Origin: Catajapyx aquilonaris
Taxonomy: Eukaryota
Assembly: GCA_000934665.2 (NCBI GenBank)
Contig: KZ538494.1
Location: 62,001 to 126,000 of the forward strand
DNA length: 64,000 nucleotides
Direction of reading: 5' to 3'
Made by a program: the position numbers and the translations under genes. Positions 5,737 to 62,000 of this stretch are shown piece by piece. Each line of letters opens with the position of its first letter. Position 1 is the first letter of the stretch. The notes under the pieces are model-generated. The model saw nothing but the letters and a program-made list of their open reading frames with translations, was not told where the DNA came from and searched no databases.

Positions 5737-8700
5737 CTGTACACAGGGACACAAAAAAGGCGTCACGATTAGTTACACATTCCTTGTGGGCGGGCAGACA
5801 CGTGTGATGCTATACGACAAAATGATGCAGGCTACCGGGTACAGGAGGTGGTGGGGACTCTGCAATTCTGCAGGATTCGTCCGACCCGTCGCGTCATTCC
5901 CACCCCCTCATTAATTAGGCGGACGTCCCCACGGTTTCAGGAGGCAATCCGCTGGCAAAATTAAACCAAAGCCTAAAGTCAACTGCCGGGTCAAACTTTG
6001 ACGTGGGGCGCCACCATTGCGCCGACAAAATTACGCTCCAGCTCTCTTTCTCTGTTTGTTTAAAGAAAAACTTAATTAATGTACATCAAATAAGAAAGCC
6101 ACAAATCAGGACTGCCACCGGAATCCTCGCTCTTGTCGTATAGAAGACCATGGTGCAGCTGCCCAGTCATATATTATACGTGTACAAGTTATACAGTGTA
6201 GTCTGAACAGGCTTTGTTGCTGGGTGTGCCAATCAGCATAGGCATGTATAAAGGAATGGGTGATATCACGAGCTCTTGGTGATATTATCTGCCCAAACTG
6301 TTGGGGGCATCCAGATACACGTGCACACAGCAATAATATCGCACAATGGCAACCCCGTGCGATGACACTGTGCTACAATATTTTCCCCAGCAAAACGAGG
6401 CGCATATCGCGGAGCGGTGAAAGCCCGGATTAATAGAGTTCAGGGAATGAAGGCAGGCCGCTCATAAAAATGGCGTAGGTGAGTTCAAGGGAGTCCCCAA
6501 AGAGCCACACACATCGGCCCCGCTCATTGGCGCCGGAAATTAAAAGTGCAGGGCCTAATGACCCCTGCCTTCATTATTCCCTCAGAAAAATTCTCCCTCT
6601 CGCCCATTCTAGGGCAGCACCAGCAGTAGCATCAGCAAAAGCAGCACTGGGGGTACAGTACAGGGTATATTTGTCTCTTGCTGCATGCATATAGGCTCCG
6701 GTAAACTGCGGGTCAATTTACGACCTAAATTTATGCACCGCGATTTGCGTCCCCAATGTGGACAATAAAATAAAGCAAGGGCGAGTTGTGATGCCAGCTA
6801 ATATATCACGGAAATGAAATTCTTCAACCGCGTTTGATAGACTGGACGCTTTGCCGTTTTCATTCATTCAAAATGTCGGATTCGCATTACCTCTAATTAA
6901 TTGGCCGCTAACGCTGCTTGCTTCCGAATGACGGAAGATACACACCGACTTTGCACTTCTGCCATTAAATAATTCCACCACTCGAAAAATCCATGTGCGC
7001 CGAATCCACTGGCGGATAACAATTTTCTATCTAGGAGGCCTAATGTACTGTGCCAACAATAATCCAGTCCGGGGTTATCCCCAGTTTTCCGGAGGTAAGC
7101 CGCAGCTGAGTTCGCTCAACCGAAGTGAAACATGGACAGAGTGGGGGATTCAATCAGACAGGGGGGGAAACCGTGACCCAGTTGAAGTTCAACTTGCTTG
7201 TTGAATTGCAAACTGATCAAAAGGGTTGCCCACAAAATGGGTTTTCTCTGGAATTTGTGCAAAAGTAGAGATAGATTTTTTTTTGCGGCCTATGTCCTTT
7301 TCCCAGACTTTTTGATTTTACACCAAATGACGTTGCCGCATAGCTGTAAGAGCAGGAGAAATTTTCGTTATGAGGATTTCAACATTCATGAACTTATATA
7401 CGGATGGCAGGCAATTATTTTGAACATACAGTATTTCCATATATGGACTGTCTGATATTATTGACGCAAACAAATTTTCGGCTCATAATGTTAACGACTA
7501 ACTCAGGTGGTCACACACTGGACACAAGCTGCCAACAACCTGCTGGAAATCCGAGGGGTTGAAAAAAAAATTTAACGCATGCTCGCGTGGAGTTACATCA
7601 GCTCAGAAAATGAGGCTTGGTCTTACTTTCCCCCGGTCAAATTTCAACCACACTGTCATTCGCCATCCAACTCCAACACTTCACTCACAGGGGTTATGGC
7701 CGCCGCACCATGCACTATAGCTATATACCTAGAACCTCCTGTATGGCTCAGCTTAATTCCTCTACATATTGCAATGTTACGAAGCGAAGAAAATTAAATG
7801 CGACAATTGGTTAGTCCATTAATTAACGTTACAGTAGAATTAATTTTGCAACAGAGGACTATGAAATGGCAAAGCAGTATTGTATTATTAAGACGGTACA
7901 GCCGCATGGCTGCAGCGCTATGACTGTACTATACACTATACAGTGCAGGTGAACAAGAACAGTCTCCAATTTCAGACCAAGAAAAAAGTAGGTTTTCTCA
8001 GAAAACATCGGCACATTAATCTAATAATATCCTTATTTACCTCTCTTACATTTCTGCTCTGAAAATGACAGTTTTATAGTACTCGACAGAATCCATTGCA
8101 ATATTTTCATTACTATAAGCAAGGAGGGAGACCATAAATTAGGCCTACTCTTAGACTAGCAGTGAATGAAAGCGACTGGTAATAAACTGAAACAAGTGGC
8201 ATGACGACAGCCTATGAGTAATCCCCAGTAGACAACACAGGTCAAGTCGTCCAGTTCTGTCTCGCTCCAGTGAAAGAACGACATCCGCGGTTGCCGCTCT
8301 GGGCCCCCACCCTTGTACCGCATCCCCCTGGCCTCCCTGGAAGCACAGGAGGTATAGGTAGGTAGCTGGTGCAACTTTGGAAAGGAATTCCCAGGAGAAG
8401 AGGGCAAGTCGTGCCATCAGACTAATGGGCGTGTCCCCTCCGCACATGACACGCCGGCCTGCCTTTAATCAAGTGCGCGCGCCTCCCTCGAGAGCCTCTT
8501 CCCTCAAGTAATTAAGCAGCCTCTCCGCCTTCCCCCACCCACCCACGCACCCCCCTACACTCTTCCGCTCCCAGCTTCACTTAGCAACCAAACAACCCTC
8601 CCCATGGCTATCCCCCCGCCTATTAATGACCCTTTCTGCCAATTATTTTGCACCATCATCATTCCCCCCCTTAAGAAGCCGCCGCATCTGGACCTTGCCA

Positions 8701-20700: not shown

Positions 20701-22450
20701 GTACTGCTCCATCAATTACGCTGAGGCATTTTGTGAATATAACAATGCACACCCAGGGACAGTTACAGAGCCCATTACGGCAGTGACGCCTCACTGCTAG
20801 GATCCCAGTTAGGTTACAAAATAAAATCATAAACGTCATGCAGGTTGGCAAATATTGCGTGAAAATGTAGTTAATAACAAGGGCATAGTTCGAAGCGAAT
20901 AGGAAAGCACGTGCGGTATGCGGTTTAGACCCATTCCACATTAGCCTATGCGGCATTCACTGGGTGGTGATTTAGATGCAGAATGACGTGTGCGTGTTCC
21001 CATTTATCCGGCCTGGTCAATGCGCAGGTCGTTCTCCCATGTGTGTATTATGTCTCAATTGTGTCGCGTCGACGCCGATCTGCAGAACAGGCTAATTTTA
21101 TACAGGTGTATAGTCCAGACCGAGAAAGTACACTAGTAGAAAGTACAGTAGATAATTTACCACGATCTCGTTAAGTAGTGGTGTAAAGTACAGGCAGGGG
21201 TTGCAAATATGGGCTTGGTCCCTGTACAACATGAAGCGCGTGTTAACACGACTAGAACCAACAATAAATTAAAGACTGCCCACATTTCTTCCCCCTTGTT
21301 ATTTCTGGTGCCGATGTTGTGCATGATAATGTTGTTGTGATTGGTGGCGGTTATGATAGAGAAGGCAGGGCAGTGTTATTTCACTAAACAATCAAGCCTA
21401 TACCGCAGTGTGACTAACGGTTATAATCCAGAACGTGGAACGGCAGATATATTTCATTAAATGTTAATATGTGCAGGCTGGATACACATTGCCGCGCGTT
21501 AATGGGTTCATTAGATGCAAGCGATACAGCCCAGCTGCCTAATACCGTTGTCCACGGGTACACAGAAATGCTAATTCGCCATCTCCCTTCAGGTAAATCA
21601 CGCTCCTTATTAACATCTGTATATATACCAGCAACGTTACATACTCGCAATCCTGGCGTGACTGGGGAGCCTTGGTGTAACTCGATAATTCAACAAGTGC
21701 TGACACACTTCCCGCAGACTTGGCGGTAAGAAACCTTTCCAGAAGTTGCGAAAGTGTACCGCACTTTCGCCTGCACCCTAATTAAAATTGGGAGACAAGT
21801 GAAACCACAGCAGTGCCGTAAATCGCCAGGATGCCCCCTTTTCACACCAGTTCTCCCTATACTTGTGGTCTACGCACCACTTTCATTTGGGGCCCCCTGC
21901 CGTGTAGGATGGCTTTTGATAAGTGGTGCAGAGGATCTCCACCATTTTTCGCATCCCTTCCTTCTTTTTATATAAAAAAAATTTAAAGGCCGCAGCACTG
22001 GGATTGATGGGGGAACGGTGTTATTAAAAAGCTGGGTCCGTCGTTTGGAGTGCGGGGGGAATCATGTCGAACACGGCGCCAGCGCCATCTGGCCCTGCGC
22101 TACCCATTTCCCGCCCAATAAACAGCCGTAAATTACTTTTAGTGCGCCATCCGCCCCCTACCAACACTTGCATCCCATCCACTTTTTCCTCACTAAAAGC
22201 TTGCTCCTATCGCACTCTCACTACTAAGCTTATCGGCTCCTGCCAGGTGGCTCTGCAACTTTCCCAATCGGTTAAAAAATATCATTCTACTTCCCTTTCC
22301 ATCGCGAAGGCCCGTAATGGTCATGGATATTTCTAAGTATACATTTATAAACATTAGCATACATCGCAGTTCGCTCTAAGAACCTCAGTGGAAATTTCGA
22401 TGCAGCACCCCCAACACATGCAAAATTCATAGAGAAACAATCTCCGTTAC

Positions 22451-22497
22451 ACTTACCTACATGTAAAAAAAAAAGTCGCACATTATTAATTGACAAA
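22451..22497 (-). other. Candidate recursive splice site (zero-nucleotide exon / ratchet point), junction 22457|22456
   Basis: Minus strand: TTTGTCAATTAATAATGTGCGACTTTTTTTTTTACATGTAG|GTAAGTGT. T10 tract, ~39-nt AG-free zone, TAG acceptor directly abutting a perfect GTAAGT donor, on the sense strand of a 52-kb intron. Confidence 0.55.
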
Positions 22498-25140
22498 CTT
22501 TATATACGCAGACGTGCTCCTACATCAATGTTTCCATGCAAAACTAGGAACAGTAGAGGCTTTGTTATAAAATTATGTATACACAATGTAAACCGCTGCC
22601 AACACAAGAGACCGACACAAATTTCCATAAAATGTACGGCCATTGAAAATGTTTACAGAGTACCGCCAGTAGTAAAACACCGCATTAATATGCTGTTGAC
22701 TTGTCTACAGCAAACAAATTGGTTTTGGGTGGCATTACTAAATTTATTGCACTTTTACTGAGCATCTGTTTTCCTTATTGCACGATTTCCTTTATGGGGC
22801 CATTTGGGGGGTAGAGACCATTACATGCTTTGTGCTTCTTTCCATCTTAGAGGGGATGAAAAATAACCCACCCTATATCCAAATCCATACCAATAATTAT
22901 GGGAATTTCCAGACATGCAAGTGCCACAAATCATGTAACGGACGATGTGAAGCAACACCAGCACGGCTCTTAACAATGGACCCAATTCGCATCTGAAGAC
23001 ATGAATACGTAAATTAACCGAGTCGAGATGATGAATTACTCCTGTAAGGTGAATGCTGTCTACCAATAGGCCATTGTTCAACACAACAAAAGGCTTGTAA
23101 ATATTGTAAAAAAAATAAAGCATTGGCAATAACATGAATGATCCAAGAAATTCATATCGGGACAACCTTTGGTCCCTGTTTTCAAGAGTGGAAGAGTCGA
23201 TAAGGCAGACCTAACGTAGAAGTGTCGAATTCACGGATCACTTCTCTTCCAACCAAGTCTCCAAAAAATTTTGAGCATAAAAATGGCGCCTCTTCGTCAT
23301 CGATTCCTCGTCCGAATTCATGGTCCCATGGCGGCTCAATACATCTCGACAACGGCCGCACGTTATTGAAATTGCGGCCGAATATTCTGGCCCGCTAAGC
23401 CACCTGTTGGACCCTGAGCGCCAATACCCGTACCCTGCATTTACGCCACGCACATTAAGCCTTCCTCAGCTTATTCGCTCCTATCCCAACTTGCCACTTT
23501 GCATAATTTTTCCTAGGCGACCATTAAGCTGCACTCTGCCGAAGCTTATTTCAAATGGAATCATCAGGACGCAATATTAAGGGCAAATTTTCATGTGCAA
23601 AAAAAATGCAATTTCGTTTTTTTGTGCCGTAGCGACAGTCATTATTACATGTAGACCCTATTAAAGCAGACGTGACAATTAAGCTTAGGCTATTCATAAA
23701 TTCTAGCTTTTTAAAAAATTTGAAACAAGGAGTGGCTGAGTGCAGCTTCGCACTTTCAGTTGAAGTTCAGAGTATATCACAAAATTAGGTCAGCCCAGAT
23801 GGATGCGCGAACGTGAGCACTGCCTCAGGTACAGTATAATGGATATTGTGTAAGTACACTGTGCACGTTTTAATACCTTACTAAAATGATCCGCAAATCC
23901 AACCAACCGCTGTAATGCACTTTAGCTTTATCTTAAAATTGACTTTAAAATTCAACGAACGTTGCAATTTAAGGCCCAGATGGTCTTCGTATACGTAAAC
24001 CCTTCACACCTTCAATTCGACCGCATTTTTATTAGCTCGAGTAAGTTCTCAAACATTTCGCCACTTCTTTTAAGACGACTCTAAAAGACCTTTTCTGCAC
24101 GCAACACCCTACACGTCAAGGGGTTAAGCAGCCCTGAAAAATACTGCACAGCAACAAGCCCGAACGGCACTTGTCGTACCGGCCCATTTATTTAAAGAGA
24201 TGCCAAAGGGTCGTGATGCAAAACAAATAGCAAAGCCGTCCCCCCACTTGAACAATGTTGCTTTATGCAAAGCAAGTTGAATGCCATCAGGCGGTGAAAA
24301 GGCCAGGCAGGCAGATCTCTATCCGCTCGTCTGCTCCACCAACCCACCATTTTTTCTCTTCCTCCGTTAGTCGCCGTTAAAGGCGCTGTTTTCGCTCGAA
24401 TAAACCCTGACACGTCCGCCATTCTCGACGGATTCTTGGGATGTGAGGCTGAACGCGCCAAAGGGCCCTTTGTGGCTTCTTTAAAAATTGCTAAGGAGCT
24501 TGCAGCAAGGGATCCATGTCCGAGACTTGCACATTAGTGCCAGAAACGCAGGGAAAAACAAGAATACAGATTCAGACGCTTTGTTTTCTAGGAGGGGGAG
24601 GATCCAGCCTGACTTGGCAGTGGTAAATGGCAGCCCAAGCGCCCCGAATCTATAAGTGCAGTTCCAGGCCAAACAGCAGCAGCCCAGCCAGGTTAAAGGG
24701 GGGTGGTAGAGGGGGGGATGAACGTGAGAGAACGGCGCCGGATCCGTTTTCATAAAGCGCTCTTATTCCCCGAGAGAGCGGCCCAGATAAAGAGATGTAT
24801 TCACTTTGGCCCGCCCAAAGATGAATCTGAAAAGAGGGAGCGAGGAGAGAGAGAGAATTAAGCCTAATGAAGATTCATTGGGGCTTTGATATAGTCGCTG
24901 CCTCCGGTTTGTTGACTGCCGTCCGGGTCGCTGCAAATTCGACTCCTAATTGACATTAGAGCAATTTGCTTGCCCCCTAACCATGTAATTCGGCCGGAGA
25001 AAGCGCTCCCGGTTACGCCGAGCGGATTGCCTTTGCTTCCATCACGGCGCGCCTACTACGCTGCACCAAACCCCAACACCCATACCTGAGCACCCCCATT
25101 CTTGTACCTCTGCCACCTACACACTTCAACATTGCACACC

Positions 25141-25225
<85 letters not shown>
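25141..25225. repeat. Perfect (TAA)28 microsatellite
   Basis: 28 uninterrupted TAA units plus T; explains the poly-Leu ORF 25126-25419. Confidence 0.98.
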
Positions 25226-25226
<1 letters not shown>

Positions 25227-28200
25227 TTGGGCTACAAACAGTGCAACCTAGTGGTTGTTGGAAAAGATAAAGGTTTAAGATGCGGTCAATGTTTCCCCGC
25301 ATTTCCATAAACACGCCAGCTTGTAGTGACCATGAATGGATTAGCCACGTAGGAGAGGCAATGTGGAGACCAAAACGCCTAGAAAACACAAGTAGGCTAA
25401 TCAGTGATGCACAGGCCACAAGAGGATACTAGTTAGGACGCAGCGGAAGTAATCCGGACGTGTGCAAGCAAAATATGGGAAGAGAAACAACGTTTCCGTT
25501 GTCAACTTATGCGTAGGATGCAAGGGAGTTTCAGAGGAATACTTTGGTTTACTATAGGGGAAAGCCGACATTTCCCTACAAATAATAAAATCATGTAAGG
25601 AGAGCAACCGAAATGGATAGCTTATCTCAATAATTTAAACCCTTCACCCGTTGCATCAGAGAAGCGACCAGCAACTTCGTTACAAACTGATGTAGCAATA
25701 GTTTCCATATAGAGTAATTACTGCAGTTGGCACTAATTTTAGTTCAGGCCAGCTGTGTTTGTCTGGCGTTTTAACAGTACGCACCTCAAGTCCGTTAATA
25801 AAATGAAGTGTTCGCAACACACTTGCACCGCAGCAGGAGGCACTATTTTGTCACTCCCTCTGAAGGTAAGATCAAAACAGCACGCTATATTAACTACTTG
25901 GTATTTTCCCAGCCTCGTACTGAAAACACCCATGAAAACAGATTGCACCTCGCATTTTCCGTAGTAAATACGTCTTCTCTCGAAACCGAAGTTTCCTGAT
26001 ACAGAGAGCTTTCCAGAGGCTCGATCCGCAAGAATATTCATCCTCCGGAAAGAATCAATTTAACTCTCGACAGTGAGATAAGGAATCCGATGAAGCTGAA
26101 GTAAAGAAAGGCGTTGATAAAAACAAGTGGCAAGCGACAGAGCAGATGGGAAAAGAAACCGAAGCCCCGGTGGAGCCCCCCGGATTTTCTCTTCCTCCTT
26201 CCCCCCCTGCGGGGAGGGATTGGTAAGAGCGATCCGGGTGGGATTCCGGGAGATCGGAGGTACTTCATCGAATCCACACCGATATTTGGACACATAAATC
26301 CGGAAGACGTCGGCTGCTTATACTGTTCCATCAACAAGGCGCTGTTTGCACGGCCAAATGGAGCTCTCATGTGACGTAACTGGAAAAAAGTGGGTGGTGG
26401 GTGCCAATGACAGACCCCCCCCCAAAAAAGGCCGGATTGGGATAAAAGCTGGGAAAGCCGGTGCACCAGGGGAAAGAAATGAGTACCGACAAGAGGTGGA
26501 AATCCGGGCGCCCCAATCAATTACATCACTTGTAACTCGGAGCGACAGGAAACAGCAACGCGCCAGAAATGCTCCCTAATTTAATTTGGTGCCACGGCCA
26601 AAACGGGGCGGGGTTCTAATGGACCACCCCGGCTCCTTACCACAGGAGCATCATCCTCTCCTACCCTTAGCGCCATTCCAGCGCTCTTTAAACCGGGTCA
26701 AAAGGTAAAAGCCGGTGCGACGACCTAAGGCCCACCCCAGACTAATTCGTCGTCACGCATCTTTCGACTGTGGCCCACAGAGCAATGACCCGAGAATGGT
26801 GCAAATTGCTCGCACAATAAGGCTGATATGCACTAATGATGACATGCAAATGCGATGGGCACGCTTTTTTTCATTAATGCATAACGGAATGCTTTAATTT
26901 CGGGCCATCGCGTCCTCTCTCCATGTGTAGCTATTGACTCCAGCATTTTTATTCAGATATAGGTATGATTAATATCCGACAACACCCACACCTCCTAAAA
27001 TAGTGCGCAAGAAAAGACAAATGGTTGCCAACCTATTCATTAAACTAGCCTCGTCTCAGGATGTCTCACGACTACCACGAAATTCGTACCCTCCCCCCAG
27101 GTCCGTCCACATCACCCCAAGGATCCACGCCATCTCTCGACAAAACTGCCAACTCGCAACTAACCCCATCTTGCGGATGCTATGTTACACAGTATACGCA
27201 AATATGCTTAACTTAATGCGACGTTAAATCACAAAGTACCGGCTCGTAAATTGGGTGCAAATCGAGTTCCGCATTGTTATCATTTCTAAATGCCACACCC
27301 TTTCAAGCCCTTCCATTTGATTACGGCCAACAATCAAGTCGGTAAATCATGCCACATATACCTGCGTGAAAAATCTGCATTACGTTAGCAATTCGCGACA
27401 AATTATCCTTTTAACATGATTTTGTGAACGGTGCCTCTTCCATCCCACTAATTCTATCCCGGCGCGATAGCAATCTGATTAACTGCAACGTCCTCATTTT
27501 AATTCTCCCAACTCTCCAAGTATGACTGTCATGCAATCTCTCACCTGCTACACACATGCTGTTCCTCTGCTCATTTTTCCCTCCGCTTTTTTCCACCCAT
27601 GCCGCTCACTGACCATTGGCATATTCCCAGGAGAGACTACACCGATGTGCGTACCAGAACGGAGCGAAAGTATAATTGCAACCGTCTGACAACGCCTGGT
27701 GACACTAATCAATCTGAACGTAAAGTGCTCCAGTGATCGAAACCTTCCCGCGCTCTTTAATTCGTCAGTCACACATCAGCAATGTAACTGTTTATAACGT
27801 GCGCACCGGTGGCTTGTACGAGTCAACTTTAATAAAATTAATGATACCATTTCCATAATTACTATATAATGGCAAAACTAATTAAATGTGATGCAAAAAC
27901 AACATAGTCCAAAAAGAATTCGAACTCTATTATTATTAAAATTGAATTCTTCCGCTATTAGCTGTGGGTACACAAAAATATCTGATGTTAACATTTCGCA
28001 AAATTATGCTTTCGGTTTGCTGTCAGAATCAATGTTACAGTGTTTCTCCTATAACACTACACACAGTTCTTTTATACTGATGCCGGCCATGCTTCCTCAG
28101 CACCACGAAACCTTATCTCCACAGTTTCCCAGGCTGGCAATGTTTCGTTCGTTTATCTCCTGCAGCCTCACAGTTCACGTACATACTGACGCATGGGTGG

Positions 28201-38700: not shown

Positions 38701-41626
38701 TTTTCTGTGTTGCATCCACCATTACTTTAGCGCTACCTGAAGCAAGAAAAGGGGGTTGGACCCCTCACCCCCTTTCAAATGGCCCTTTCCACTCGCATAA
38801 TTACACGCCTTGCTGAAGAAACATGGCGCTGCAATGATCAATCCCAATCACCAGAAGCTATTTTCTTCCCTGAAATCCTTACACGTTAGCTTTAATAGCG
38901 CCTTCATTTATATTTCACTCCAGGTGTCACCAGAGCCCACTTGCCGTATTTAAACTTTGCGTAGAAATAATGGAAATCCTGCACCAGAGGCGGGGGTATA
39001 GCAGCATTAGGCGGCCAAAAACATCTTGAAAAATGCATGAAATAGTGGGTCAAAGTTTTAATGATACCAATACGCGCAGAATGGACTTGGCGGCCTGGAA
39101 ACGGGGCTAATTAAGGTCAGGAGCTACTTCATAAAGATGTGAGCACAATTTGGCGGCTGACTTGTATTGCCTGGCGCTAGTAAAAAATTCACACCATCAC
39201 TTTCGTGGTGCGCAAAAGCCCGCTTTTAATCCGCTAACAGGGAATAAGCGCGCCATTTGCTACTCGCTTTTCAATTGCACCGAGCGGGATCATTTGCTGC
39301 ACAATTTTCATCCTCCGCGCACTTTCCCCAAATGTACATCCGACGCATATGCACCATATGGAAAACCACAATTTCAACACGCCACCGTATCAAGTACTCC
39401 TCCGAGTATGTCGTTTCGGAACCCCCCACCTATTTCTATGGATCGCACTATAGACTATTTCTACACCGGTTTCGGACTAAATCGAAGCCCTATTGGAAGT
39501 TACGTACAATCGTTTCACATATTTACACTGCACAACAATGCATATTTATGGCAAGAAGGTTGACATTTATTACACAAAAAATGTTCGAGGAAATTAATAA
39601 AAACATGGTGGTTGCAGAGAAAAATCAATTCGTATTACAGAAATTGAAATGTCTACATGTCTCCCCAGGAAAAAAGTTCAATTTCAGCTGAATGTCACTT
39701 TTTCAGCTATATAGACAGCTTTTTTCCCTGGGTGGTGTAAGGAGAATCGCGGGGACGAAAGAAGCAGAAGGGCGAAAAAAAGGGGGCCCTTGAGAAGACG
39801 AGTAAATGGATAGCGATAGTGAGGAGAGGCGGAAAGAGTAGCCGTGACGACTGCAGACAGCGTTCCGAAGTGCCAATCCAGTGCTAAAAATCCCGGATGA
39901 GGGCTGCCGACACCTGAGTGACACGTGCCGATTGAGCTGCGCCTTCTTTTTTCCGCTGCTGGACCTCCCCAGGAAATGACTCCCTCCTACCCTACCCCTC
40001 CACTGCAATTTCCTTCGGCGGCTACAATCACCCTCACCATCCCGGGGCACCATCTGCGCTTACAGGAAGACGAGTAAATTCGGGTCGTCCGTGCGTGCGG
40101 CTGGACACAATAATGGAATCATCTCCACTCAAAAAGTACATGACGGTACTCCCAAGGAACCAAGCCAATATACCACCTCTTACATCCAAGTAAAAATACC
40201 TGGCCTACCCATGCAGAAGCCACAATGATGGCACGCCGAGTGGAACGGGGTGCTTTTGGGTGGTCGGCAACAACCCATCCGTGCTCACCTGGAAATTTGC
40301 CCCCCATCACAATGGTGGAATAAAATAGCTTCATGCTAATCTGCTCTCCGTTGCTCGCGTTGGAACAGCTTCCTGCGGGCGCCTGATGAAAAGCCACTTG
40401 GGTTTCAACTCCTGCGATATGTCAGAAGTAGAGAGAAAAAGAAGACCTAAAACCGCATACCCCTCCCCTCCCCTCCCCCCGCCCTTCCAGCCCCCTCTAT
40501 TTCTCCTAACTTTACCCCTACGCTCACATTTCTTTCTCCCAACTTTATCTCCCGCCACCTGCCTACAGCATCTTTTCCTGCTCTACTCCGCCTTTATCGC
40601 CAGAATTTGTCTCCTTCAATGCCTTCAACCTCTACGCCCTTTCACAACTTTCTTCTCAACCCAGCTCATTGATGGAGAAATAACTGCCACTGAACTTTTT
40701 TTTTCCTCTCCCCGTCGCACCATACTCTCCCTCCGGACCAGACTCAGGTGCTGGCATACTGCATACATTTCCAAAGTGTTGTGCATTATTTTCAATATCA
40801 GCTTCCACCCAGCTTCCCTGCAAGTTAGGTAATGTCCTCCAACAAAAAAAAAAAAGTTGGTTGAGTAACTGACATTCAGATTTTGGAAAAAGGATACGGC
40901 TACGTAATTGCAACCGGTGGCATCAAACTTTTCCGTAAAAGAGTAACCATCACTGCGTGAAAGCATGCGCTGAAAAATGCATGTTATCCTATTACATTCC
41001 ATTACACGGAACAAAGGATTCGCTCTTGTGCTACCCACCTCTCTAAGTTACAGCCAGGAGCCATTTTTCTTGGGTTACAAAAATGGAGCTTTTTTCTGCC
41101 TGAGATAGACCGAATTACAGTACCCTGTAACCCATTTCACGGGCACATTGACTTTGCAATTACATGCATGTATATATAGGCTTACATGCAGGTTGATGAA
41201 AAGTGCTGGCTTGACATCCTCCAATGGCAATATTCTTGGCCTAAATATCGTTAGAATAGTTGGGTAGCCAGCAATTTTTATAATATGAGTTAAAGCTGGG
41301 AGTAGAGCCATTAAATTTTCAAAAGTTTTTGGGCCATTGGCTCTTGTCAATCGCGCCACTGTTCTACCCTTTGCCTTACCCGCGTCAGTCATCAGGAAGT
41401 CACACAATTTATCAGTGTCATCCGACCAACTCTCGTGTCATTGCCCGTGTCACTTACCCCCATCGTGACATTCATGGCCATGTTGCCACCCTTGTCAACG
41501 TCATTGTCATAAGCGGTTTCAGTCTATAGATCACTATCCATGTCACTGCTACACCGCTCAAATTACTCGTAATTCATCCGATAGAATCAAATTGTGTACA
41601 ACTTCTCGCCTAATCGCTTCTACTAA

Positions 41627-53900: not shown

Positions 53901-56900
53901 AAAATGCCATTCCCGGCCTCATTCCCAAAACTTGTTTCAGCGCGTTTCAGCCAAGCGCGGGTATAAATATGTATTTCCCTTTAGACTGCAGACAAAGGGA
54001 GGATTGGGTTCCTAACTCTCACTTGGTAGGCTGCAGACGCTTGCCTACAGTGCACTTTCACCATTTTTTTTTCCTTCTCCTATACCCTTGCCTAGTTTAT
54101 GTTCGGTCGCACTTTAAACTCCATACAACTTGCTTTCCCTTTTCTTTAAAATAAAATAGTCTACAGTCTCAATTGTCCGAACTTATTAAAAATTTCATTC
54201 CGGTGCAACACCCACTTTGATATAAGCACGTGTAAACAGTTACAGTCCATTCCTGCGTGGCCCAGATACTGCGTGGCTCAAGTATGGTAAAGGTCGGTAA
54301 CCGCACACAATATTAGTTTGCCCTTCAGCACTATGCATAAAGTTGAGCATTGTCGGCATAGCCCAGTTCCTACTCCAGAACAAATGTCGATGTTCATAAA
54401 CAAGTTACTTTCCTAACTGGATTGGGGGTAGTACAGCACTCTGGGGATGCTCCAAACTTTCCTACAGCAGTTTCCATACCGACTGCGTAACTAAGCAGCT
54501 ACGTTCTCTCAGTCGACTGGGGAAGGCGCGAGAGTTTTTATTTCTGCACTGAAAGCTTAAAATTCTGTACTATCAATAGGACCAGTATTACAGTGCACTC
54601 GGGCGAGCAAATCTAAGCTGACCATTGGCGTGCCATACAGACATAAATTGCGATGCTAAAACTCTTCTCGCAAGCAGCATTCCTCAGAGAACTGGTAAGA
54701 GCACCGCCCCCCAAAAACTGTAAACTCCCGCGATACGCAGGCAATAAACACGCTTTTAGATGCGGCAAAAGGAAGCCTTAACCTCCCCATAGTAATTCCG
54801 CCAAAGTCAACACCTTCATTTGGCGAAAGTTGTCTGCTCAAGTGCAGAGGTTGCTAGCTGGCATAATGCAATCAAGGCCTCGACGCAGCTTCCCGCATTG
54901 TGTACGGCGACGAAAACCCGACACAAGGACTTGATGACTAGGAATCCAAGTTTCCCACTTGATGCGCTAGTACATTATTTAACAGACTACGCTTCTTCAC
55001 TTAGTCTCTTATTCCGTCGCCTGACTTTGCTGGCTGCTGCTCGAAATCAATTGCACGTGTCGGAACCTGAAGTATATCAGGGCAAAATGTGACCAGGAGA
55101 GCAGTTTGGGGAACCGGGCATATAATACCAAGCCATACTGCCTGCCTTGCTGTTCCTCTCTAAACATAGTAGAAAAGTTGCCTCCATCTTTTATTCACGG
55201 CCGATCTAGCGCAAAGCGCGCCATCCATCCCCTTGTTCCCCCTGCTCTCCCAGGCTGGACTACCCGAGCTAGCTTCTAACGACACCCCCAATGCTATAAC
55301 AGAATCCCTGCAGCACCAGGACTGACCTACTAACCCTCTCCCCAATGCTCTTTGTCCAAAGTTTTAAATCACGACTTCCAGTAAGGCTAAGTCGATGGGT
55401 TAAAGTATTATGCGGGACTAGGAGTTCCGGACTACCCCAATATCTCATTGTATATTCGACCTCTCAGCCGTGTTTCAAGTAACATTTATCACAAGTTACA
55501 TCGATTGTATGTGCGATACTTATTCCCAAATTTCCAACTTAGCTATTATTTTATTTTTTAAATTTTTTAAAAGGAAAAACGCTTTTCATCCCACTAATGA
55601 TATGGCAAACTAAAGGTATGTGTATCCTTTCTTAATGAGAAATCAAGCACTACTATACAGTAACGCTGAAGTACTCTCTGAATTAAGCCCACTTCTTCCG
55701 CCTGGCTGAAATCGCTCGAACACTTCCACGTTTTCCAACTTTTAAAGAGAACTTGTGCTGAGGAAAGAAAGAAAAAACAAAGCGCGTAAACAGCATCGTT
55801 TTTATCACGAGCTAAGTATCTTTTAACGTCGGGACGCTTGTTTGCCAGTTTACCGCAGAGATAAGTGGAAGGAGTCGTCGAGTAATTGCTGTTAATTGTG
55901 TAGTGGCAATGAAAGGAAGAGTTTAGAGCACGTTTACTTGCACTTTAAATTGTATTGGGATTTACGCTTTACGGCACTAATTACACCTTTGCCATCAACA
56001 GCGATTTTGGGGACAATTTCAAAGTGCATTTGACGTCATGGCGCTTCCCCTACTATCCAAGAGCCTCTATTTGAGCAGGGGCGTGGAAAGGGTTGGAACC
56101 AACGTCACGCTCTTGCACCAGAGAAGTCTTAAAGCGCATTACTCAACTTTGGCTACTACAAGCATGTTTTTTTTTTCTTCTTCTCCTTCTGTGGTTATAA
56201 AGGTTGGGGGGGGGGGGGGGNGATTGACTCCAGAAATCGATTCCTCCATCCCCCTACCTCTTCCCCCAACCCTCACTCAAAAGTGCTTCCTGCACGCATG
56301 ACCATTTCAATCCCACCTCTACTGGGAAATATCCTGATCAATTTTGGCCACAGCCAGCCTTTACAGCTCCCACTGGCAGGAGATGGAGCTCTTGATCAAT
56401 TTATGGCACGAGGAGAGGGAGTTCTTGAAAACGCGGATAGGGCAACGGGGAGAAACGCAGGTGTCATCTACCAGTACTCTATTAAAAATGATGACCGGTA
56501 CTGTTGCCGGTAATGGAACACACACATAAACAGGGGACGTGTTGACATAGGGCGTGTTGACGTTGGTGGGTCGGAATTCCGCGGATTCCACGCCCACATT
56601 TTGCCCCTCGTGCAGGGCCACACATCATGCCTATGGCGGACAACGTCAGCCGGGGCACTCCTGCTAGGACCAAAATTCCGGATCCCAATTTGCGCTGCCG
56701 GGCCTTATGGAACCAATTGAAACCCCCGGTCTGCTGGCCACCCTGCCGCGCGCATTCCCACGCCTAACACAGACGGGTTTATGCACACCGATCTGTTTGG
56801 GAACGATCCAGTTAAACCAACTGCAGCGTCACTTACAACGGTAACAAAATGCTTCATTCGGCGCATTCGGCCCCGTTGGGATGCACTGAAACCTCAAGAT

Positions 56901-57898
56901 GAATCCGATTCACGCGGCTCCAAATAATTGCCAATTATTTCCAATCTGCCAGCTTCGGTGATACATGCAACCACTAAAAGAATTACCACATCTGAACTGC
57001 ACTGTGTAACGAGACTGCAACAAAATGGGTAGCTTTCCCATCGAGAGAACATCGCCCCTATATATTTATTTCAGCAAACTTCCGCCATAAAACCGCTAGC
57101 ATCAATGTAAAATTCACCATCATGATCAGTGCATATTGAAATAATCATCTAGCGCATTTCACAGTCGCTGTTTGTAAACGCCACGAATAATTGATGTAAC
57201 ACTTTATAAGCCAAATTTCATTTTAAAGTGGTTACGGACTGCCAGAATCACAAATATTTGGCTTTTCACCGACATTCACATTAAAACAAGCGAGAGACAC
57301 TATTGGCAGACATTCTCATATAATATTAATAGCTTGCAATTGCACGTGATACAGGATGTAATATATAGCGACAGCCAGGGGCCAGTCTCAACTTCTAAAC
57401 ACTACTAAACGCGTTTTCAGTTAGCAAGTGTAGGTGGATTAATTAGTCGCACATCTATTTAACATATTTTTAATTAGATTTCGCGCTGATCGCACAATTT
57501 CCCAAATGCGACACACGTTTCGCGCGTACATTTCCCCCCAAAATACGTCTACGAAATTATGGGTTAACGCGTTCTTTATGACGCATAATCAAGAGGTGTC
57601 ATGTACACACCAAAAAAATGCAATTACCCCGATGCATTAACATTCCACACTATCACCACTACACATGTCACGGCTTGGGGAGGGGGGTTGAACCGTGGTA
57701 GTAAAAATGGCGTCCACGTAGGTCTGAATCAATCCATTCAAGAAATCGGGCGCAAGATTGAGTGACAGGATAGAATATCGCTCCGTGGGCTGGAGTGGAT
57801 TGAGCTATGAGCGCAGGTTGCACTGGCAGCTCAACTCCGGGTGTGCCCAGCAACTAGAAACAAAGCACATTGAGAACAATGGACAAAACTGGTCTTAC

Positions 57899-57995
57899 CT
57901 TGCGCGTGCGAGAATCCGGGGCATAGCAGGAGTAGGAGGAGGAAGAGGCTGGCGGCGGCGGCGGCCCCGGGGCGGGACCAGGGGCTGGGCCTCAT
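57899..57995 (-). CDS. Lar: LAR-family receptor tyrosine phosphatase, first coding exon (signal peptide MRPSPWSRPGAAAAASLFLLLLLLCPGFSHAQ)
   Basis: ATG at 57995 in good context (GGCAGGATGA, A at -3). 32 codons + 1 nt encode a basic n-region, hydrophobic core (SLFLLLLLL) and S-H-A cleavage motif. Ends in consensus donor CAAG|GTAAGA, phase 1, matching the phase-1 acceptor of the Ig1 exon (G+AT = Asp). Confidence 0.85.
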
Positions 57996-59050: not shown

Positions 59051-62000
59051 CAACTCTCTCGCCTAATGCATCCGTGGTGAGTACACGCACTTTCTCTGCA
59101 CAAGGGTTGCTATACCCCCCCTTTGCTAACTTATTTATATCTACGCCCGGGTTTGCATCCAAAGCTTGCAAGCTCATGTTTACCCATCTCAGCAGGTCAT
59201 TGGGCATGTTAGTTGCACTTACTCCTGGTTCACTAATAATATTCAAACCACATCGGGGTTGCCAGGCTGTTGTTCGTGAAAATAAAATTTTGGAGACAGA
59301 ACAATGCAAGACGTGAATGAGTGGCGACATAAGTTCGCCCCTGGGAATTAGCTGTGGTTAGCATGCGGCATGGAAGGGTTAATATACTGCATGCCATATT
59401 TCAATCGGGAGTATATCATAAGTAGATAATCATAGCTTGCTATACGGTGATCGAAATATACCAGCTCATTCCCAGAATAGTTCATATTTTGCGAACTGTA
59501 TGGTACGGCATGCCATTTAGAATAATTAGTACAGTACGCTGAGAGTTATTTCGCAGTCGGATTGTTATGAATGGCAGAGAGTGGCACGTGGTTTTAACGC
59601 AGATCACAGAATTTCCTTTAAAGGTTGCGTTGACCTAACAGAAAGGTTACAGGTAGTTCAACTGCATTTGTAACATTTACACATAAAAAGGCAGGCATTG
59701 TGTCCGGCATTCAGGGATTCAAAACAAAATGAAGATTTACTGGAGGTGAGTGAAAGTTTTAAAAGGGGTAACGGCAGTACTTGTATATGCTTCACAGACG
59801 CAATGAGCCTCCTGGTAATAAAGAAGTGTGTTGTACTTTACAGCATACCCATAGGACAGCATACGTATATGATTATACTTTGCATTCATATAACTTGTTA
59901 GGTCAATTATTATATCTTTAGGAATGTTTACTGGCTATAATTATCCAGTGTGTGTAAAAATTATTATTATTCAAAGAGAAATTTAATGCATAAATTATAC
60001 TACACTCCCACAGAAACAATCTAATTAACAAAATGGTACCGCCTATACAAGCCTCACACATGAACAAATATGAAGCGCCAAACAACGTGATTACTATGCT
60101 TGTGACTTTCCTCATCTGATTTGTATGTCATTATCAAAGAGCCAGGCCATAAAATAATACAAATTGTAACAAGTACAAAGTTAGAAAATAACGGGATTTA
60201 TCATCCTAGCACCATGGCAAGCAGAATTCGTTCAAAAATTGACAGCATTATTCTCGTACTAATAATATTCCCGCTATTTTGTAATATCCAACACCGATCA
60301 GTGGCATTCGGGGGGAGGGGGGGGNNGGGGGGGCACCGCCACATAACTACTCACAAAGTTCATGTCACTCATGCGAACACCGAGTACTAGCATCTGTGTG
60401 CTGGTCCGAAAATTTCCCCACGGAAACAGATATACCGCCCGCCTAGGTCCCACTAGATTGTTTCCTTGCCAGCTCCGACATGGTAGTGTCTCATCCACAG
60501 CACCCATGTCATTTTAGCGCTTCTCGCTCCCTCACTTGCCTGTTCACAAAGATATATACTGCGGTGGTCCCAAAAAACGGGAGAGAAAAATAAAACATGA
60601 ATGTGTGATTGGAAGGAAAGTTTCATGCACATGTCACATTTGGTGCTGGTTCCTCCACTGTGCGCTACGGTGAACCGACAAAGGTAAATTTAGAAACCTC
60701 AGGCGAGAGTTAATAATAAATCCGTTTTACCGATGGCAGCAGGATCCCCCGACACCAAGGATACTGCAGTCTCACCACTGCTCACCTGCAATTTTTATTT
60801 CCTTATTTACTCTCAGATTTCGCGAAAAATGTATTTGTGTCTATGTTCGCTTCTCTATCCCGATGCTAAACCAGTGGCTACACATTACGTATATCAAGGG
60901 CAATAATTTCAAACTTCTTGAATTTTACATAGCCTACGTATATGCCCCGTTACGCGTTATAAATATCCATCTCCAACCTACTTAAGTAAGTCCAACCTTA
61001 TTTTAATGTTCTAGCGATGGTCCCATTCTACTTAGGCAAAATAGGTACAACAAAATCAATTTTCCGGAGGATTTGCCCTAAAAGCGAAACAAGGTCAGAG
61101 ACTGGCCATTCCACAAATAAAAATAAGCCATCCTCTGCATATAACGCAGGAGAGCTAAACCACCATTTTCAAAACGATTTCGCATGGGACGCAGGCTGTT
61201 CTTATCTAGGTCACTGCTTTAAAATATATTAATATGCTATTCCCTAACGGAGCCGTACATTCTAAATTATTACAAGTAGCATGCAGTTACTGATCCATAA
61301 TTACCCTACTTTGTTTCGTGAAATTACATAATGCTACTAACAAGTTTTACTCTTAGCCTACATTCTGGGCAATAATCTTCACTGATATAGTGCATATGAT
61401 TTTCACTGCATGATGTAGTTAGCCTCTATTATATGATAAAATAACGTTCTTTCAACACCATGTAGAATAATGTCCTACATGGCCAAGACATACACTTATG
61501 CATTAGGGATCCTCCCGAGCCGTATAGCAAGTAAAAATATGTAAGTACGTTTAGTACGCTGGTCAGAGAAAATAATGCTTATTATCGTATCAGGACAGAC
61601 CTCTTGTTTTTATCTCGTCTACCTATCAAATGCACGCAGACCTAATAAATAAATAAATTCCGTTAATTTATCAGAGGCGTCACTATGTTTTTGTTCCTCA
61701 TGGGACGAGTGAGTTGAGCTGAGGTAAGCAGAGTTGGGAAACTATTCCCAGTTCCATTGAATGGAAAAGCTTTTCTATTTTCGCCATCTCACGCTATCCA
61801 GATTATTTCATTTGCCTTAATGGAACAGTATTGGCCTGGATAATCATCCCCTATTCTTCTAATTTGGGAAGCCAAAAACTGGCTATGCGGCTTCGACGAT
61901 CCGCTCATGTGGCAAGATAATGAGAGGAGGGTATATAGGGCCAGGGGAAAGTCGCGGTGGTGTTGGAAAGGTATGTTTCCTTTTCCCCTGATGAGGTTAG

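Follow-up and report, generated by a model that had tools for sequence, protein, structure and literature searches.

A candidate recursive splice site in a 52-kb intron of an arthropod Lar gene

Introduction

Does the 52-kb intron of an arthropod Lar gene carry a ratchet point, where an acceptor directly precedes a strong donor and from which the intron would be removed in two steps? Recursive splicing of this kind is well charted in Drosophila only, and more thinly in mammals. In vertebrates it is found in the neuronal adhesion genes CADM1/2, NCAM1, NTM, OPCML and ROBO2, and the vertebrate relatives of the Lar-type phosphatase genes have huge introns. The locus addressed here lies on the minus strand of a stretch of 64,000 bases, which we call the window throughout, and it had been described in a first-pass annotation as a consensus-perfect recursive splice site. 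We describe here the host gene, the anatomy of the motif, its expected frequency and the readings that compete for it, and we compare the site with ratchet points of flies, other invertebrates and vertebrates. In splice motifs, a slash marks the splice border.

Results

The gene that hosts the site is, judged by homology, a Lar-type (type IIa) receptor protein tyrosine phosphatase gene, in which the signal peptide is followed directly by Ig1. The coding part of the signal-peptide exon, from the start codon to the donor CAAG/GTAAGA, occupies 57899..57994 on the minus strand; its last base is 57899 and the intron begins at 57898. The Ig1 exon (5736-5446, minus strand, 291 nt) is defined by its splice signals, the acceptor tgtgtacag/ with the AG at 5738-5737 and the donor GAAG/GTGAGT, and by its homology to Lar. 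Its translation matches insect Lar proteins with an E value of about 1e-52 and 64-71% identity. A protein search with this exon gave 276 proteins at E <= 0.001 among 700 candidates; 120 of them are listed, and all named rows among these 120 matches are insect Lar-type phosphatases. The exon corresponds to residues 43-139 in Tribolium Lar and 45-141 in Drosophila Lar, with 69-70% identity. Because Ig1 starts at residue 43-45 in the beetle and fly proteins, no coding exon is absent between the signal peptide and Ig1. The first coding intron thus runs from 57898 to 5737 (52,162 nt, minus strand), and the exon borders at 57899 and 5736, together with the Lar matches of the Ig1 exon, bear out that the site lies in a 52-kb Lar intron, as had been annotated. 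The site divides this intron into an upstream part of 35,442 nt (57898-22457) and a downstream part of 16,720 nt (22456-5737). The highest identity to the Ig1 exon is 71% among the matches listed, which fits the earlier view of a non-drosophilid arthropod; the source is an arthropod that is not close to the insects among these matches.

Several other features were seen in the window. On the minus strand, an ATG-led short open frame at 40289-40340 ends in CCAG/GTGAGC and had been listed before as a possible alternative exon. Within the intron, at about 25010-25430, the translations of open reading frames contain long runs of I, N or L in three frames, which point to a long trinucleotide microsatellite of AAT/ATT type. 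The window contains three N bases, and X residues lie within G-runs of open reading frames near 55981-56513 and 60106-60513. This suggests that the N/X positions (~56200 and ~60330) reflect assembly uncertainty in homopolymers.

Read along the minus strand, which is the sense strand of the gene, the site consists of T10 (22474-22465), ACATG, TAG with its last base at 22457, and GTAAGT (22456-22451). The AG/GT core is found at 22458-22455, on the gene's own strand within the intron. All elements on which the annotation had built, that is, the T10 tract, an AG-free zone of about 39 nt, TTAAT and a TAG followed at once by GTAAGT, are present on the minus strand between 22451 and 22497. The donor half (22451..22456) is the 5' splice site predicted to be rebuilt after the upstream exon has been joined to 22456. 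It agrees with GTAAGT in 6/6 positions, TAG/GTAAGT matches CAG/GTAAGT in 8/9 positions, and this is the best donor within +/-400 nt. The acceptor half (22457..22474) has its T10 tract at -18..-9, with a pyrimidine run of 11 and a pyrimidine fraction of 0.67 over -25..-2. The six bases that adjoin the AG (ACATGT) are only half pyrimidine; there is T at -3, G at -4, T at -5, A at -6 and A at -8. The AG-free zone upstream of the site measures 39 nt, the preceding AG being at 22499-22498 on the minus strand, and AATTAATAAT lies inside it. The rest of this zone (22475..22497) holds a branch-like TTAAT at 22489-22485, which would place a putative branch point A at -30. The term consensus-perfect is thus apt for the donor half, but it does not extend to the acceptor half, where A at -6 stands against the TT at -5/-6 of flies. 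A second donor-like motif, CAT/GTAGGT, is located 4 nt upstream (22457-22460, minus strand) and overlaps TAG/GTAAGT, so that the two form tandem 5' splice-site motifs.

A motif of this kind could also be a product of chance, namely a AGGTAAGT octamer that happens to follow a T-run in an AT-rich intron and is ignored by the spliceosome or used as noise only. The octamer occurs once in the window on the minus strand (A at 22458) and is absent from the plus strand. Markov models of order 1-4 predict 0.53-0.93 copies per strand of the window, so that composition accounts for the roughly one copy observed, and the minus strand holds nine T-runs of at least 10. The octamer alone is therefore unremarkable; what is unusual is the good acceptor directly before it. 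We compared all 385 AGGT sites of the window (207 on the minus and 178 on the plus strand). A 6/6 GTAAGT donor is confined to the candidate site, and among the 21 AGGT sites with a donor match of at least 5/6 this site has the longest pyrimidine run (11). This comparison and the octamer count corroborate that it is the sole YAG/GTAAGT with such a tract on either strand. The best antisense look-alike, cgccatctcccttcag/GTAAAT (cccttcag/GTAAAT) at 21591 on the plus strand, has 9 pyrimidines in a row and a donor that matches in 5/6 positions, G at +5 being the one missing. It serves as a gauge of the background and, being a fair imitation, speaks for chance.

The expected number of composite sites was estimated from the counts of qualifying AGs multiplied by the probability of GTAAGT after an AG. 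Of the minus-strand AGs, 33/3,737 have both 11 or more consecutive pyrimidines within 30 nt and an upstream zone of 30 nt or more that is free of AG, and 101/3,737 pass a looser criterion on pyrimidine fraction. When YTAAY with its A at -21..-36 is required in addition, 4 AGs (strict) and 9 AGs (loose) remain on the minus strand; in the window as a whole, roughly 7% of AGs (264/3,737 and 239/3,466) are preceded by a branch-like motif in this range. The joint expectation for tract, AG-free zone and perfect donor is ~0.005-0.025 sites per strand of the window and lower still with the branch motif, a figure that argues against chance but describes local improbability only and is no proof of function, given that the thresholds were set after the site had been seen and that a very large number of windows had been scanned when it was picked out. 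This selection, in turn, favours a chance origin. Taken with the comparative evidence on both sides given below, we consider a chance motif possible, though rather unlikely. The site is not part of a repeat, as the 2 kb around it have no further copy in the window. Screened against Rfam, the complete window yielded 0 families, and the six open reading frames around the site have no Pfam domain at curated cut-offs and two sub-threshold matches.

The near-perfect donor TAG/GTAAGT could equally belong to an ordinary exon that has escaped annotation, either an 87-nt cassette exon (22543-22457) or a short alternative first exon. A pyrimidine-rich, acceptor-like ctactgttcctag/ ends at 22544 on the minus strand and would open the cassette. 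Read in the phase of the signal-peptide exon, these 87 nt reach a TAA after 14 codons, and because of this in-frame stop in the Lar reading frame the cassette would be a poison exon. For a first exon one can point to a TATA-like TATATAAA stretch at 22506-22499, yet an exon that begins past this stretch would be merely ~20 nt long. With either form of the exon, the features just before the donor (T10 tract, AG-free zone and branch-like motif) would have to be coincidences, and the region is free of protein or RNA family matches in the scans described above. The 56-residue frame that follows the site shares no words with proteins of 30-98 residues in a collection of 5.8 billion proteins, which likewise speaks against this reading. 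Hence, we regard an unannotated exon as improbable.

Since GTAAGT matches the U1-complementary consensus perfectly, the site might also act as a stand-alone U1 snRNP site at which no splicing occurs, for example one that suppresses premature cleavage and polyadenylation or marks the intron. In fly mod(mdg4), an intronic sequence that binds U1 is described as conserved and as having a non-canonical function (PMC4387717, excerpt). Such a role would leave the juxtaposed acceptor features unexplained, and the GTAAGT hexamers of the window (15 on the minus and 9 on the plus strand) display no evident special spacing or enrichment. Thus, we give this reading a very small chance.

In fly and mammal models, recognition of a ratchet point begins with a short cryptic RS-exon, which must have its own, weaker donor downstream (PMC8605326, excerpt). 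For fly kuz and Bx, mutation of the ratchet-point GT is reported to lead to inclusion of such a cryptic exon. A fly-type RS-exon would be expected to measure ~50 nt. The best donors 20-250 nt downstream of the Lar site each match the consensus in 5/9 positions and are weaker than the ratchet donor: GAG/GTTCTT at +73 (G at 22383) and GAT/GTATGC at +94 (G at 22362). The latter had been proposed as a possible cryptic RS-exon donor 94 nt downstream; the motif is indeed present at 22362, but it is weak. If used, it would define a putative RS-exon of 94 nt (22363..22456, minus strand), and GAG/GTTCTT would define an alternative of 73 nt. Neither length is a multiple of 3, so that inclusion would shift the frame, and frame-shifting length is typical of cryptic RS-exons. 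Both donors are too weak to count as evidence for an RS-exon, and the shortage of a good downstream donor for exon definition is a further point for a chance motif.

Comparison with the ratchet points of Drosophila reveals both similarities and differences. Like the sites in Ubx, kuz and luna, the Lar site places AG/GTAAGT on the gene's own strand within an intron of great length, and its host, too, is a neural or developmental gene. It shares with fly ratchet points an extended U-rich tract and, at about -30, the modal fly position, a motif that resembles a branch point. In flies, the branch points of recursive splicing range from -36 to -21 and are most frequent at -30, and the recursive introns measure 11-133 kb with a mean of 45 kb, the segments removed having a mean of 18 kb (Duff preprint). 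The two segments here, 35 and 17 kb, fall within the fly range of 2.6-63.6 kb given in the portion of the fly data considered. A high-confidence recursive site is reported for 63% of fly introns >40 kb (PMC6110457, excerpt). One difference is the acceptor. TT is found at -5/-6 in 196/197 fly ratchet points (Duff preprint), and in the first of eleven parts of the main table of Pai et al. every row shows TT at -5/-6, and C prevails at -3 (PMC6110457), while the Lar site has A at -6 and T at -3. This breach of the fly rule is one of the arguments for a chance motif. The ordinary Ig1 acceptor of the same gene has T at -5 and G at -6, and the TT rule may be specific to flies. Further differences are the purine-interrupted spacer between tract and AG and the want of a convincing RS-exon donor downstream; moreover, the Lar site is a prediction from sequence and its host is not a fly. 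Fly Lar itself (FBgn0000464, identity checked) is absent from the nine supplementary files of PMC6110457, and a query of the main table by chromosome position, made with an unverified coordinate, gave no match for fly Lar.

Beyond flies, ratchet-type motifs have been counted per 100 kb in introns >50 kb, on the intron strand and on its complement (Shepard et al. 2009, PMC2773006 Table 2). The densities are 2.20 versus 0.10 in fly, 1.03 versus 0 in mosquito, 0.81 versus 0.10 in beetle, 0.54 versus 0.07 in sea urchin and 0.48 versus 0.12 in bee, while the intron/complement ratio in vertebrates is 0.9-1.5 (PMC2773006). The sense-strand excess is thus 4- to >10-fold in bee, beetle, mosquito and sea urchin over a background of ~0.1 per 100 kb, and 4- to 22-fold for invertebrates overall (PMC2773006). 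These data cut both ways for a chance motif, in that the sense-strand position of the Lar site in a long intron is the one enriched in invertebrates, whereas the long introns of vertebrates have no such excess. Should the genome studied here follow the invertebrates, selection would account for most of the strong motifs on the sense strand of such introns; should it follow the vertebrates, selection would not. The Lar site resembles the RP-sites of that study, which are likewise sequence-only predictions of the (y)n-ncag/gtaagt type on the sense strand of introns >50 kb in non-drosophilid invertebrates. A difference is that those sites were matrix-scored at an 80% threshold, while the Lar site was judged by its motif features.

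Another case is that of the locust NPF1 gene, where a recursive site in a 230-kb intron was predicted with a fly matrix and has an upstream branch point and a poly-T/C tract (2022, PMC8892266, excerpt). It has partial support from U2AF65 immunoprecipitation (PMC8892266, excerpt), and in this it differs from the Lar site, with which it otherwise shares a non-drosophilid arthropod host with greatly expanded introns. The annotation had called recursive splicing little documented in non-drosophilid arthropods. Outside flies, documentation is indeed thin, but the process is not undocumented there (PMC2773006 in 2009; PMC8892266, excerpt, in 2022).

As for vertebrates, the Lar site shares with RS-exon genes the long neuronal cell-surface receptor gene as a host. 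Its regenerated donor surpasses any nearby donor, as the donor-competition model requires (PMC8605326, excerpt). A difference is that mammals mostly express their RS-exons, only nine fully suppressed intronic sites being noted (PMC8605326, excerpt). Among the papers covered by a full-text search, none combines recursive splicing with PTPRD. The human candidate table of PMC6110456 (>30,000 rows), in the portion considered, contains rows for PTPRF and PTPRS, from which no inference is drawn.

Related loci were sought in metagenome contigs. A 28-mer that covers the site had 0 exact matches, whereas the Ig1 exon as a query recovered nine Lar Ig1 loci of 1.0-7.9 kb, each with at most 1.6 kb of upstream intron. 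They are uninformative on the site because they are too short to reach a comparable position. The sole YAGGTRAGT among the nine, at the end of the Ig1 match in locus L007, is that exon's own donor.

Discussion

The site combines a perfect donor, a pyrimidine tract, an AG-free zone and a branch-like motif in an arrangement that is unique in the window and lies on the sense strand of a 52-kb intron. The single best reading, which we consider plausible, is that of recursive splicing; it draws on this anatomy and on priors from other species. We see the chances as evenly balanced that the site is an intronic ratchet point in this first coding intron of Lar, with an exon of zero length or one that is skipped every time.

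The RNA steps that we infer would run as follows. During transcription of the 52-kb intron, the T10 tract, the TTAAT region and the TAG would be recognised as a 3' splice site. The signal-peptide exon (57899) would be spliced to 22456, and the first 35.4 kb would leave as a lariat. The new junction would then consist of the exon G followed by GTAAGT, regenerating a strong donor. Finally, this donor would be spliced to the Ig1 acceptor at 5737, so that the remaining 16.7 kb are removed and the mRNA would carry no trace of the event.

Recursive splicing agrees with the length of the intron, the sense strand, the sizes of the two segments, the branch-like motif and the small number of such sites expected by chance. 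It is favoured also because the host is a 52-kb intron in a gene for a receptor of the neuronal adhesion type. Several observations weaken it. The A at -6 breaks the fly TT rule and the RS-exon partner is weak, and the recursive-site table of PMC6110457 does not include fly Lar. Adding to this, the long introns of vertebrates have no sense-strand excess, and a large-intron genome such as the present one could follow either pattern.

The present case is one prediction of a known kind, and genome-wide predictions for invertebrates have been available since 2009. If it is true, an under-studied lineage would gain a site of a known type, and the wider interest would lie in the departure from the fly TT rule. 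A working ratchet point far from flies that does without TT at -5/-6 would mean that arthropods in general use recursion for the long introns of neuronal genes, with acceptor rules that differ between lineages, and that Lar-type genes are among those processed in this way; we think of this broader scenario as a long shot. If confirmed, a ratchet point in a distant arthropod would show the reach of the mechanism and of its sequence rules. It would also mark a spot in the gene of Lar, an axon-guidance receptor, at which the change of one base could suffice to bring in a cryptic exon that shifts the frame.
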